From contig JAZDMI010000011.1 in the NCBI GenBank assembly GCA_043801155.1, forward strand, positions 27,439 through 91,438: a stretch of 64,000 nt of DNA, given 5' to 3'. Of this stretch, positions 16,090 to 19,539 are shown one piece after another. The DNA is from Candidatus Gottesmanbacteria bacterium. GTDB taxonomy: Bacteria > Patescibacteriota > Microgenomatia > JAMCYU01. Numbering within the stretch: the first letter of the stretch is position 1; every line of letters begins with the position of its first letter. A model generated the notes under the pieces. It made no database searches. It saw nothing but the letters and a program-made list of their open reading frames with translations, and had not been told where the DNA came from. The position numbers and the translations under genes were made by a program.

Positions 16090-17232
16090 ATGTTGATTAA
16101 ACCGGATATTGCTAGATTTGCCAGAATAAAAGTTATCGGTGTTGGTGGCGGTGGTTGTAATGCCATAAATTCCATGATTTCGGTTAATCAAATTCAGGGT
16201 GTTGATTTCATTGGTGTCAACTGCGATGCTCAAGCTTTACTTACATGTCAGGCTCCAACAAAAATTCAGATTGGTGATAACCTTACCCGCGGACTAGGTG
16301 CTGGCGGAAATCCGGAGATTGGTCGACAAGCGGCCGAAGAATCTAAAGAAAAAATTAAAGAAGTCCTTACTGACGCCGACATGATATTTTTAACCTGTGG
16401 AGAAGGCGGTGGAACAGGTACCGGCGCTTCACCGATTATTGCCGAAATTGGAAAAAGTCTTGGCAGTCTAACTGTTGCCGTTGTCACCAAGCCATTTATT
16501 TTTGAAGGGACAAGAAGAATGGTTGCCGCCGAAGAAGGAGTAGTTAATCTTAAAGATAAAGTTGATACCTTAATTATTATTCCTAATCAGCGGATTTTGG
16601 AAGTCGTTGATAAGAAAATGACTTTACTGGAAGCCTTTCATGTAGCTGATTCGGTTTTGGGTCAAGGAGTTCAGGGAATTTCCGATTTAATTACCATGCC
16701 GGGACTTATCAATGTTGATTTTGCTGATGTACGAGCGATTATGACCGACGCTGGCTCGGCCCTTATGGGTATTGGAACCGGAGTCGGAGAAAATCGGGCG
16801 GTCATGGCCGCCCGTACCGCGGTTGCCTCACCGCTTTTGGAAATTTCTATTGATGGAGCCAAGGGAGTTCTTTTCAATATTACCGGCGGTCCGGATTTAA
16901 CCATGACTGAAGTTGACGAGGCAGCTAAGCTGATTGCTTCTAGCGTTGATGCTGATGCTAATATTATTTTCGGCGCAACTATTGACGACCAAATGGTTGA
17001 TCAGGTAAAAATTGCTGTCATTGCTACCGGTTTTGATGAAACAAAGATGAAACTCAGAGAATTTGTCACGCCAGTTGCACCCCAATCACAACCAATTCAA
17101 CAGCAAGCACAACCGGTTAATAATAATGGTAATGATAAAAATAATCCACCACCGACTCAACCTACAAACAATGAAACTCCTCCGGAACAGGATGAATGGG
17201 ACATTCCAGCATTCTTAAGACAGGGAAGATAA
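16090..17232 (+). CDS. ftsZ: Cell division GTPase FtsZ
   Basis: 380 aa with the tubulin signature [13 protein letters not shown] and [13 protein letters not shown]-rich linker ends in the conserved C-terminal peptide [13 protein letters not shown]. Confidence 0.95.
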
Positions 17233-17301
17233 AACGGATTTTATTTTTAACCTCAACATACCGTCATCATCAAAACAACCCCTTGGCATAAATTTTCATT
17301 A

Positions 17302-17769
17302 TTAGGGTTCACTGTTTCGTTGCTTCAATGCTTCATTAATCAAAAATACCTGATTTTTTCGAAGAAGTGGCAGATTGTCTTGGGTAAAGAAGCCGTACTC
17401 GGATACTTCGTGGGTTGGCGTGAAATCGCCACCAATCAAAACGCCGATGTAGCACATATCAAGGCGGGCGCTGTCACGATCGGTCCGGGTTTTGAGCGAT
17501 TCGTCCACGCTTACTACCAGACCCGACTCCTCTTTGATTTCTCTTTCAAGCGCTTCTCGCGGATGCTCACCGGATTTTAAATAGCCGCCTGGCAAACTCC
17601 AGGCGTGTGATCGATAAACATGTTTGAAAAGAAGAACTTCATTTTTGTCATTAAAAATAATCCCGGTAACGCCTACCAAAAATTGATCTTGGAAAAAACG
17701 CATGACTAATAATTGCAGACCTTTAGAAAGATGCAAGGCTTTGTAGATTTTAGAGAGAATGTTTTTCAC
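17302..17769 (-). CDS. NUDIX hydrolase
   Basis: 155 aa with the Nudix box GGYLKSGEHPREALEREIKEESGL. The gene body is about 50% GC against about 34% for its neighbours. Confidence 0.85.
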   Translation of the reverse strand: MKNILSKIYKALHLSKGLQLLVMRFFQDQFLVGVTGIIFNDKNEVLLFKHVYRSHAWSLPGGYLKSGEHPREALEREIKEESGLVVSVDESLKTRTDRDSARLDMCYIGVLIGGDFTPTHEVSEYGFFTQDNLPLLRKNQVFLINEALKQRNSEP

Positions 17770-18110
17770 AGGGCATTTTTGTCTTCAGACTCGACATGAG
17801 GATCATGCTTCAGCTTTTCATTTTCCAATTCTAACTGATGCACTCGTTTGGTCAGCTCCAGCACAACATCCTTATTTTTTTTGATTTCATTATTTTTACC
17901 CCGAAGTGAAAAATAAGTAGAAATCGACTTGATAAAGAAAACCAAATAGGATAACACAAGGCCAATTAATAATGAACCGACAATGACATAAAAAAGAGGA
18001 ATGTTTGAAAAAACATAAGGGCCAAGATTAACCGAAACCGGCATGAAATTATATTTTGATATATATACCAAGATTGACCCAACCACTAGAAGTAAGATTA
18101 AAACTAACAT
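17766..18110 (-). CDS. LapA/DUF1049-like small membrane protein
   Basis: 114 aa. Two TM helices followed by a charged coiled-coil tail. Overlaps the NUDIX gene by 4 nt, consistent with an operon. Confidence 0.45.
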   Translation of the reverse strand: MLVLILLLVVGSILVYISKYNFMPVSVNLGPYVFSNIPLFYVIVGSLLIGLVLSYLVFFIKSISTYFSLRGKNNEIKKNKDVVLELTKRVHQLELENEKLKHDPHVESEDKNAL

Positions 18111-18276
18111 CTAATACTTTATTATACGCTTTTTTTTTCTTTCTACCCAAAACAACTCCTTGGTCACGGGAGGAGATTGACTTCTTTTCTAACCTCTGAT
18201 AAATTCTTTCTTGAAGACTTATAAAGGAATACTTTTAATTGGGAGTTTTGGAAAAAGACTGAAGCTAAAAACTATA

Positions 18277-18318
18277 GACGAATGGGACATTCCCGCTTTC
18301 TTGCGTCAAGGTAGATAA
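18277..18318 (+). repeat. Orphan ftsZ 3'-tail copy 2 (encodes [13 protein letters not shown])
   Basis: Same 13 aa plus stop as the ftsZ end, with 8 synonymous substitutions (ccc/gct/ttg/cgt/caa/ggt versus cca/gca/tta/aga/cag/gga). The upstream frame is closed by a taa at 18190 and contains no ATG. Confidence 0.75.
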
Positions 18319-18386
18319 TCTATCTAAATTGACACCACTAATAATTTTCTAAAACTAATTCGAACATGATATAATTAATCTGAACG

Positions 18387-19472
18387 ATGATTAAGTATAT
18401 TTTAATTGTTGTGGTCGTAATAATTGGCCTATTTTTCCTGATACGCCCCAAAAACTTACGGAGACTTCTTGTTACACCTAGGCTCCGTGATAATATTACT
18501 GTTCCTATGAACAATTCAGAAAACCCGACCGCTCCATCTTCCGGTATAGCGCTTGGGGTTTACGAACCAGCTCCCGATGCCTTTAGTCACGGAACGGCCG
18601 TCGACCAGTATACTGAACAGGTAGGCAAGAAACCGGCCTTTGCCTGGTTTTCCGTTAAGTGGCAGAATAACATTACTGGAGCATATCAGGAATTTGATCC
18701 GGCAATTCTCGAACAATACCGAACGCGCGGGATTATGCCCGGAATAACTTGGGATGCTTCTAAAGGTATAGGCCTTAATAAAAACCAGCCTGATTTTTCC
18801 TGGAAAACAATTGCTTCTGGTAAACATGACGCTTATATTACTCGAGTAGCTAAAGGCGTGGCTGCTTATAAGTATCCTTGTGTCCTTCGGACACTTCATG
18901 AAATGGATGGCAACTGGTATCCCTGGGGCTTTCGTGCTAACGGTAATAATGATCCGAAAGATTACGCTATAGCATGGAGACGTATTGTTGACATATTTAG
19001 AAAAGAAGGAGCTACTAATGTTCAATTTGTCTGGGTAATTACAGCAGGAATACTTAATAATAACATATTTAATAAATATGGTGATATCTTATTGCAAACA
19101 TATCCGGGTGATGATTACGTTGACTGGGTAGGGTTGGATGGTTACAGTAATCTTGCCTCAGATGGACGCTCACTTAAGACTATATTTCAACCAAGCTACC
19201 AGTTTTTATTAAATCATACCAACCGGCCAATTATGTTTTTTGAAGTCGGCGCAACTGAAAATCCAGCAGATCCAATGGCTAAAGCCAACTGGATTAAAGA
19301 GAGTTTTTTAATTACCATCCCTCAAGAGTTTCCCGAAGTTAAAGTAGTTAACTGGTTTAACTCTGAAAACGACAAGCATGACAAGGATTACGCAATGGAT
19401 ACTTCGCAAAATTCTTTGAATGCTTGGAAACAGGTTGTAGCAAGCCCTTTATATCAGGCAACCTTTCCTTAA
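18387..19472 (+). CDS. Membrane-anchored glycoside hydrolase, GH26-like (beta-mannanase family)
   Basis: 361 aa with an N-terminal TM anchor. LHEMDGNWYPWGF matches the GH26 (H/R)EMN-x-x-WYPW catalytic-acid region. Stretches reach about 60% GC. Confidence 0.65.
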   Translation: MIKYILIVVVVIIGLFFLIRPKNLRRLLVTPRLRDNITVPMNNSENPTAPSSGIALGVYEPAPDAFSHGTAVDQYTEQVGKKPAFAWFSVKWQNNITGAYQEFDPAILEQYRTRGIMPGITWDASKGIGLNKNQPDFSWKTIASGKHDAYITRVAKGVAAYKYPCVLRTLHEMDGNWYPWGFRANGNNDPKDYAIAWRRIVDIFRKEGATNVQFVWVITAGILNNNIFNKYGDILLQTYPGDDYVDWVGLDGYSNLASDGRSLKTIFQPSYQFLLNHTNRPIMFFEVGATENPADPMAKANWIKESFLITIPQEFPEVKVVNWFNSENDKHDKDYAMDTSQNSLNAWKQVVASPLYQATFP

Positions 19473-19506
19473 ACTTAAAAACGAATACTTTTGTTTGGCT
19501 GTTTTA

Positions 19507-19539
19507 GGAATCCCCGCATTTCTTCGCCAAGGAAGATAA
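19507..19539 (+). repeat. Orphan ftsZ 3'-tail copy 3 (encodes [10 protein letters not shown])
   Basis: atc ccc gca ttt ctt cgc caa gga aga taa uses codons different from both other copies. The frame opens after a tag at 19438 and has no ATG. Confidence 0.7.

Follow-up and report, generated by a model that had tools for sequence, protein, structure and literature searches.

The cell division gene ftsZ of a Candidatus Gottesmanbacteria bacterium is followed by two further copies of its own last codons. These copies were found in a stretch of 64,000 nucleotides (nt) of the genome (contig JAZDMI010000011.1, positions 27,439 to 91,438; the whole stretch is called the window here), and each neighbouring pair of tails encloses one or two genes. 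We consider it very probable that DNA was inserted site-specifically twice in succession within the last ~10 codons of ftsZ, and that the three tails are the attachment (att) junctions of these events. The original prediction, made from the window alone, had proposed repeated insertion at the ftsZ 3' end of DNA that carries its own replacement end, and this proposal is supported by the integrase genes, the bounded elements and the L104/L106 junctions that we found in related genomes.

Tail copy 1 (17191..17232, plus strand) is the end of ftsZ now in use; it comprises 13 residues and a stop codon and corresponds to an attL-type junction. Tail copy 2 (18277..18318, plus strand) encodes the same 13 residues and stop, and is interpreted as a displaced former ftsZ end that forms the attR-type junction of the first insert (module 1). 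Tail copy 3 (19507..19539, core 19510-19539, plus strand) encodes 10 residues and a stop, and is likewise interpreted as a displaced end. Copies 1 and 2 differ at 8 of 42 nt, copies 1 and 3 at 8 of 30 and copies 2 and 3 at 7 of 30, and every difference is synonymous. When an equal number of random substitutions was introduced in 200,000 simulations, the peptide was left unchanged in fractions of 0, 1.5e-5 and 2.5e-5, indicating that the tail repeats are real and far beyond chance. The three co-oriented copies had been predicted with exact coordinates and translations, including the 8 synonymous differences between the first two. A six-frame search of the whole 64 kb found the IPAFLR motif coded at these three sites only, and thus the further orphans that had been envisaged do not occur in the window. 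Copies 1 and 2 share 14 identical nt (GAATGGGACATTCC).

Copies 2 and 3 are each preceded by a conserved non-coding sequence, the arm (element U), which the original prediction missed. The full-length arm lies at 18202..18276 on the plus strand (nhmmer match 18179-18327, E = 1e-26). A truncated arm at 19457..19509, also on the plus strand (nhmmer match 19407-19546, E = 2e-14), overlaps the end of the glycoside hydrolase gene of the second insert (module 2) and lacks ~35 nt before tail copy 3. Within the arms, 18217-18254 and 19473-19510 form a 38-nt direct repeat with 79% identity, which is present at copies 2 and 3 and not at copy 1; the reading frame from arm to tail differs between the two copies. 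The relatives examined, a comparison set of 80 genome loci and 15 further contexts (L numbers), contain the same feature. An arm of ~85 nt that is not ftsZ sequence precedes orphan tails in the window, L006, L095, L106 and L116, and in L095 and L006 every orphan is preceded by it. Its conserved blocks are, in order, TGAAGACTTAAAAA, GTTTTGG, TGAAGCTAAAA and TGTCYTAYAA, followed by ATYCCCGC, which holds the Ile-Pro-Ala codons. From its position and conservation, the arm is read as the putative P arm of the attachment site of an element. Two similar blocks within it, ~45-55 nt apart (18209-18222, TGAAGACTTAWAAA; 18254-18268, TGAAGCTAAAA), are conserved across genomes and could be binding sites for the recombinase or an accessory protein. 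The pattern GACTTAWAAAN{10,14}ATTGGN{2,5}GTTTKGRA gave 2 matches in IMG/VR and 12 in JGI metagenome contigs; the pattern was too narrow, none of the matches stands beside a tail, and all 14 were rejected as chance. An Rfam cmscan of 16900-22200 returned chance-level matches only, none over the gathering score, and arm and tail match no family.

Direct evidence for replacement of the ftsZ end came from aligning L104, in which ileS closely follows ftsZ, with L106 (FtsZ 82% identical), in which an element lies between them. Left of the core, L104 matches the ftsZ-side junction of L106, which is ftsZ coding sequence, whereas the distal junction of L106 has the arm at this place. Right of the core, the last codons GGGCGGTAG and ~40 nt of flank are common to L104 and the distal junction of L106 (attR), and this shared flank contains a GTTCACC/GGTGxGAAC hairpin. 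The ftsZ gene of L106 in its present form ends with GGAAGATAA and runs into element DNA (its attL end can also be written ...CAGGGAAGATAA). The alignment shows the classical attB/attL/attR pattern, in which the ancestral end and its native flank have been displaced distally. The attL and attR of L106 share GGACATTCCGGC, and the two junctions of L116 share ATCCCCGC. Judging from the sequences shared between junctions in L106, L116 and the window, crossover would take place at or just before the Ile-Pro-Ala codons. An inverted repeat of the GTGAAC...GTTCAC type follows the ancestral ftsZ stop (L104 11132-11165, L106 18678-18712, L116 19201-19235); it is probably the ftsZ terminator, moving with the displaced end.

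The elements in relatives encode an integrase that lies beside ftsZ. The tyrosine integrase gene of L106 (9425-10435) begins 238 nt beyond the ftsZ stop, and the element (9187-18677, 9.5 kb) further contains a primase/helicase gene, a DUF5659 gene, a ThsB-TIR gene and a distal arm-plus-tail. The L116 element (9817-19200, 9.4 kb) has its integrase (10001-11017) 184 nt after the ftsZ stop and also closes with a distal arm-plus-tail. L003 (integrase 64% identical) and L128 likewise have a homologous integrase directly 3' of ftsZ. The L110 integrase directly follows a displaced tail and is now separated from ftsZ by a zeta-toxin cassette that was inserted later. The integrase was therefore found at ftsZ in five (L106, L116, L003, L128 and L110) of the six sampled loci of the family. 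The FtsZ of L110 ends in QKN and its displaced orphan in QRN, indicating that insertions can alter the last FtsZ residues. L110 also contains, ~30 nt after its ftsZ stop, a degenerate extra tail (PVFLRQKN*), which resembles an almost empty cassette or a footprint; the positions noted for these L110 tails are 8732-8767 and 9746-9775. Cargo of the defence or addiction type was noted in these elements: a Thoeris-like ThsB-TIR gene (L106 15362-15931), a zeta toxin with an omega-like repressor, a resolvase and a 1585-aa open reading frame (ORF), with further coordinates L110 8830-9561 and 14804-15436, and L116 18304-19014 and 12109-12273. No phage structural genes were detected in the integrase-bearing elements.

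At E<=1e-20 the family of this integrase numbers at least 320 members, and all those with a named source come from Patescibacteria lineages. The PF00589 Phage_integrase domain was present in all hits, phrog_1 (integrase) was matched at 2e-47, and the catalytic residues R147, K172, H236, R239, H262 and Y272 were invariant in an alignment of 20 sequences. The protein is accordingly assigned by sequence to the tyrosine recombinase superfamily. Its bit scores, given against the respective cut-offs, were 128/220 for XerA_Arch, 114/330 for XerD and 100/335 for XerC, and 70/265 (TIGR02249) and 48/435 (NF011946) for the integron-integrase models. By these scores it appears Xer/IntI-like, yet lies far under the cut-offs of XerA, XerC, XerD and the integron integrases. 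A single-sequence search of IMG/VR found no integrase of this family and an alignment-based search found one locus, L127, indicating that the elements are not recognised as viruses. In L127 (IMG/VR UViG_3300027835_000014), the integrase gene (4599-5606, plus) lies between tails at 61-192 and 5979-6029 (minus) and points to the proximal tail, opposite to L106 and L116.

The region between ftsZ and ileS is where relatives differ. The order ftsQ-ftsA-ftsZ-ileS is widely conserved, and the content of the ftsZ-ileS gap changes from genome to genome. Empty target sites were found in relatives with ileS 38-213 nt after ftsZ, namely L017 and L020 (38-57 nt) and L104/L105 and L107 (~100-213 nt), and the gap extends up to 6.8 kb in L006. 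The uninterrupted junction that the original prediction suggested looking for therefore exists, and the variation in gap size and gene content together with the empty sites indicates that the junction is a variable hotspot, as had been proposed. The window cargo genes are absent from the ftsZ-ileS locus in every relative compared, including the closest relative examined, L095 (FtsZ 88% identical), which has a wholly different cassette set there. A Y1_Tnp gene (IS200/IS605-type or REP-associated tyrosine transposase) occupies the gap in L099 (11889-12539) and in L100-L102; as L099 has no orphan tails, the gap also collects other mobile DNA.

Orphan tails occur in Gottesmanbacteria and Levyibacteriota. 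L095 has five of them in its ftsZ-ileS gap, L006 (FtsZ 73% identical) has two and L005 one. The orphans encode the tail variant of their own genome's FtsZ, namely QGR (window, L095 and L106), QRN (L006 and L005) or QRS (L116), and nearly all of them begin at the same codon, the Ile of IPAFL. Each of the five L095 orphans has a non-synonymous defect (IPALLRQGR, ISAFLRQGR, IPAILRQGR, IPAFLRQER and one indel). Moreover, the tails of L006_o2 and L116 stand immediately behind a stop codon, and L095_o2 has a stop inside the frame. Given these defects and stops and the frame shift of the arm, the orphan tails are decaying relics rather than conserved small ORFs. The intact orphan of L005 (Levyibacteriota; Ile codon at 12871) is inverted, on the minus strand, ~1.7 kb 3' of ftsZ, and its upstream sequence is unlike the arm and contains a palindrome. 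In L006, the first cassette after ftsZ (11156-11698) carries a peptide-deformylase-like gene with EGCLS and HEYDH motifs, and the next (12436-13260) carries two adjacent ORFs that resemble one frameshifted gene; a tail-less arm fragment lies at 13318-13367.

These observations suggest the following model. A family of integrative elements in Microgenomates, within the candidate phyla radiation (CPR), would encode the Xer/IntI-like tyrosine integrase and carry an attachment site made of the ~85-nt arm followed by FtsZ C-terminal codons (...IPAFLRQxx-stop). The circular element, with its arm, core and tail, would recombine with the ftsZ end at or near the Ile-Pro-Ala codons (core ATYCCNGC). The tail of the element would then complete ftsZ, so that FtsZ retains its essential FtsA-binding peptide, and the previous ftsZ end, now an orphan that is no longer translated, would end up behind the arm at the distal edge of the insert. 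Since the regenerated end could serve the next insertion, inserts would stack with the newest beside ftsZ, an order illustrated by L110. Applied to the window, copy 3 would be the oldest end, possibly the ancestral ftsZ end of the lineage. Module 2, with its GH26-family gene, would have come with the 3' part of copy 2, and module 1, with genes for a NUDIX hydrolase and a LapA-like protein, would have arrived last and brought at least the 3' part of the present ftsZ end; module 1 is taken as the youngest because it is nearest to ftsZ. By analogy with L106, the ftsZ end in the window would itself have been replaced, and the same recombinase would have brought both integrase-less modules. The tail copies would have evolved under peptide-level selection in separate lineages, and their divergence would be synonymous only because each was once a translated ftsZ end or a part of an attachment site that becomes one.

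Several points weigh against this model. The evidence for recombination is comparative throughout, and the empty sites come from relatives, none from this genome itself. A recombinase, which the original prediction had suggested seeking, was not found in the 64-kb window (tblastn revealed no integrase homologue) and was present in relatives L106, L003, L110, L116 and L128. When the arm next to the integrase in the complete elements was used as a profile, it matched only the tails in the window, and the window modules bear no similarity to it. Around the presumed core, copies 2 and 3 have no more than CCCGC in common, and the crossover cannot be mapped exactly. In L127, the integrase has the opposite orientation and no ftsZ lies within 15.6 kb. 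Finally, the best hits of the GH26 gene are to the same clade and the cargo composition is unremarkable except for the third-position composition of the NUDIX gene; therefore, a foreign origin of the cargo is not independently supported. As the window contains no integrase, its modules are regarded as non-autonomous, and they may be either integrase-less remnants of ~9-kb elements or cassettes mobilised in trans.

The second of these origins leads to an alternative that we regard as possible and hold only tentatively, namely an integron-like cassette platform. The modules would then be compact mobile cassettes of cargo, arm and tail, which an Xer-like integrase acting in trans would excise as circles and re-insert at the ftsZ end. 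They are indeed compact: in the arrays of the window (two modules), L095 (five) and L006 (three), each spans 0.37-1.4 kb and holds one or two intact ORFs, which may point either way, so that little of the DNA is non-coding. The modules keep a full-length arm and contain no integrase fragments, and the best scores of the integrase are to XerA, XerD and integron-integrase models. In addition, the interior of the L106 element holds an arm fragment and a cassette-like last module. In three genomes, the stop of a displaced tail is followed within 0-9 nt by the heptamer TCTATCT (window 18319-18325, where it directly abuts the copy 2 stop; L095 ~9111; L006 ~12524), whose background frequency is 5e-5 per nt. 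It may be conserved as the left end of cassettes that lack an integrase. Integrons resemble this arrangement in their fixed insertion point, in compact one- or two-gene cassettes that end in a recombination site, in having the newest cassette nearest and in an Xer/IntI-like recombinase. However, no cassette was found to recur, even in near-identical form, in a second genome or at a second position, and GH26 homologues elsewhere are not flanked by tails. RNAalifold predicted 0 pairs for seven copies of arm plus tail, and an attC-like hairpin was rejected on this ground. Neither IntI nor an attC-type hairpin was found; at 70 bits, the integrase stays far short of the 265 bits required of an integron integrase. 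A further difference from integrons is that insertion takes place within a coding sequence, and cassettes stand in both orientations. The truncated arm of copy 3 and the decaying L095 tails are also what relics would look like. We hold it somewhat more doubtful that the ftsZ stop region is a gene-capture platform of this kind at which cassettes are moved in trans by the integrase of the ~9-kb elements, each event rewriting the last FtsZ codons. If the cassette platform were true, it would be a second, independently evolved cassette-array system, with double-stranded att sites constrained by a peptide and not by a hairpin.

A hotspot without a dedicated recombinase is improbable. Homologous recombination anchored in ftsZ and illegitimate joining downstream would have duplicated the ftsZ end by accident, and the gap is indeed variable also in relatives without tails or integrase (L001, L004, L008, L097 and L099). 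Illegitimate joins would scatter, however, whereas nearly all orphan tails start at the same Ile codon; furthermore, the same conserved non-ftsZ arm precedes the tails and integrase genes adjoin the junction in five loci. We consider it very unlikely that the orphan tails are expressed as small peptides with an FtsA-binding motif that modulate division. The peptide is intact in both window orphans, and most copies of the arm have their RLKLK-coding block in the reading frame of the tail. The original prediction had stated that the orphans have neither an in-frame start nor a ribosome-binding site. The first part needs correction, as in-frame TTG codons exist at 18211 (a 35-codon ORF ending in copy 2) and 19495 (copy 3); the second part stands, since neither has a Shine-Dalgarno sequence, and the upstream in-frame stops at 18190 (copy 2) and 19438 (copy 3) were confirmed. 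The orphan-tail ORFs are not conserved in homologous elements of other genomes, several of which have a stop directly before the tail, the truncated window arm shifts the frame, and the L095 orphans are changed at key residues (P to S, F to L and F to I). The small-ORF reading was thus rejected on the stop codons and frame changes in homologous copies, and the tails keep the orphan status originally assigned to them. Least likely of all is a tandem duplication of the ftsZ 3' region with decay of all but the tail: the four extra ftsZ-like codons (DEWD) that copy 2 keeps 5' of its core would suit it, but the homology upstream of copies 2 and 3, which had been named as the sign of such a duplication, is that of the arm and not of ftsZ or the FtsZ linker, the arm-tail frame differs between copies, the arm is common to elements of genomes with different ftsZ linkers, the intervening genes are unrelated to ftsZ, and eight synonymous with zero non-synonymous changes could not build up in an unselected duplicate.

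Site-specific insertion into the ftsZ end, the explanation we favour, follows a principle that is already known; the target gene, the integrase clade and the host lineage are new. Phage 21 integrates into icd of Escherichia coli. At the same gene, the element e14 provides a replacement 3' end and leaves the original end as the orphan icdC (PMC13626634, citing Hill et al. 1989). The ftsZ elements resemble both in being tyrosine-integrase elements in the 3' end of a housekeeping gene, with a mostly synonymous alternative end and an orphaned original end. As at icd, flanking repeats of the target end were found in the window, L006, L095, L106, L110 and L116, and a displaced end in L106 compared with L104; an adjacent recombinase is absent from the window and present in relatives. 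The differences are the target ftsZ, the replacement of ~10-14 codons, the CPR hosts and the stacking of inserts; moreover, the window inserts are tiny and integrase-less, and the integrase of the relatives is Xer-like, not lambda-like.

In Streptococcus thermophilus, ICESt1, ICESt3 and the CIME elements use a tyrosine integrase at the 3' end of fda and spread by tandem accretion-mobilisation, and CIME-type elements, which lack an integrase and have flanking att sites, can be mobilised in cis or in trans. The ftsZ elements likewise combine a tyrosine integrase at a housekeeping gene 3' end with tandem accumulation at one site. Unlike them, they carry no conjugation genes (primase/helicase, toxin-antitoxin and defence cargo only), and the cassettes here are far shorter. 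SCCmec and composite SCC arrays of staphylococci have their att site in the last codons of rlmH (orfX) and are moved by large serine recombinases (Ccr). Common to both systems are an att site in the last codons, a preserved frame and stacked elements, including recombinase-less ones, separated by site repeats. The recombinase here is of the tyrosine type, in contrast, and SCC repeats are near-identical DNA, whereas the ftsZ tails are peptide-conserved and codon-divergent. In contrast to XerC/XerD and to IMEX at dif, the integrase gave no equivalog-level Xer match and is encoded by the element, beside the att site. Islands in tRNA and tmRNA genes share with the ftsZ elements the integrase insertion at a 3' end, restoration of the gene by the element, flanking direct repeats and tandem arrays. 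Here, by contrast, the target is protein-coding, and the restored segment is constrained as a peptide while its synonymous sites are free to diverge. Full-text literature searches turned up nothing on ftsZ as an attachment site, on mobile elements of Gottesmanbacteria or on this element family, which is not proof of absence.

The finding describes a recurrent, integrase-linked integration site inside the essential division gene ftsZ in an uncultured lineage with reduced genomes (CPR, Microgenomates), and it accounts for the ftsZ-ileS junction as a strain-variable gene depot in that lineage. It provides a protein-coding counterpart of tRNA-end islands, with a peptide-conserved, codon-divergent att signature that can be searched for elsewhere. 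Because the C-terminal FtsZ residues are swapped with each insertion, mobile DNA could tune the divisome-binding tail. In addition, a defined attB, the arm-plus-tail attP and the compact integrase are candidates for building vectors that integrate site-specifically in CPR bacteria, for which almost no genetic tools exist.

In the window, the gene order is ftsQ, ftsA, ftsZ and then ileS 4.9 kb further on. The target gene ftsZ (16090..17232, plus strand; 380 aa) matches Pfam Tubulin at 7e-46 and FtsZ_C at 1e-34; its product is 100% identical to an NCBI FtsZ from a metagenome-assembled Candidatus Gottesmanbacteria genome (P0001), with the next relatives at 82-88%. Looking up the exact FtsZ sequence returned no record. 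Module 1 (17233..18318; 1.09 kb), between tail copies 1 and 2, comprises two minus-strand genes, the arm and tail copy 2. Its cargo is a 155-aa NUDIX hydrolase gene (17302..17769, minus strand; Pfam NUDIX 7.9e-16) and a 114-aa LapA-domain small membrane protein gene (17766..18110, minus strand; Pfam LapA_dom 1.9e-9). Module 2 (18319..19539; 1.22 kb), between tail copies 2 and 3, comprises the truncated arm, tail copy 3 and a GH26-family glycoside hydrolase gene with a 361-aa ORF (18387..19472, plus strand; Pfam Glyco_hydro_26 7e-14). The public annotation of the hydrolase (P0241) has 321 aa from an internal Met, and the 361-aa ORF adds an N-terminal hydrophobic segment.

The original prediction had taken an elevated content of guanine plus cytosine (GC) in the cargo, ~50% in the NUDIX and LapA-like pair and up to 60% in stretches of the GH26-like gene, as a sign of foreignness. 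This was overstated: overall GC is 43.2% in the NUDIX gene, 33.9% in the LapA-like gene and 40.8% in the GH26 gene, compared with 43.2% in ftsZ and 42.3% in ftsA, and the highest GC of any 100-nt window was 57-58% for the cargo, below the 64% reached in ftsZ. As cargo GC is not above that of ftsA and ftsZ, the argument was mostly rejected. The NUDIX gene, with the highest GC content at third codon positions (GC3) of the 57 window genes (0.442; mean 0.281, sd 0.044), is the sole GC3 outlier among the cargo. An ftsQ-like gene (13976-14713) has a GC content of 26.4% beside ftsA and ftsZ at 42-43%, indicating that GC strongly follows protein conservation in this genome. Native GC and native best hits had also been named as arguments against acquisition. 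The best GH26 homologues (60-71% identity), of which the named ones come from Gottesmanbacteria, Microgenomates and Patescibacteria, fit exchange within the clade and are not an argument against acquisition. Of the two GH26 homologue contexts examined (L121 and L124), neither is near ftsZ and neither has tails, and they lend no support to the idea that GH26 travels as a cassette.

The remaining variable part of the ftsZ-ileS gap (19540..22131) contains a DUF5655 gene, small membrane ORFs, an unknown 241-aa ORF and two small ORFs. A sensitive search (nhmmer --max) detected no additional arm or tail, not even a decayed one, in this part or elsewhere in the window. The gap is bounded by ileS (22132..25116, plus strand), the conserved right-hand neighbour, which tblastn placed 3' of ftsZ in most relatives. 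The last ORF before ileS is probably native, and a Zn-ribbon ORF (21797-21997) has a 45% identical homologue just 5' of ileS in L095.

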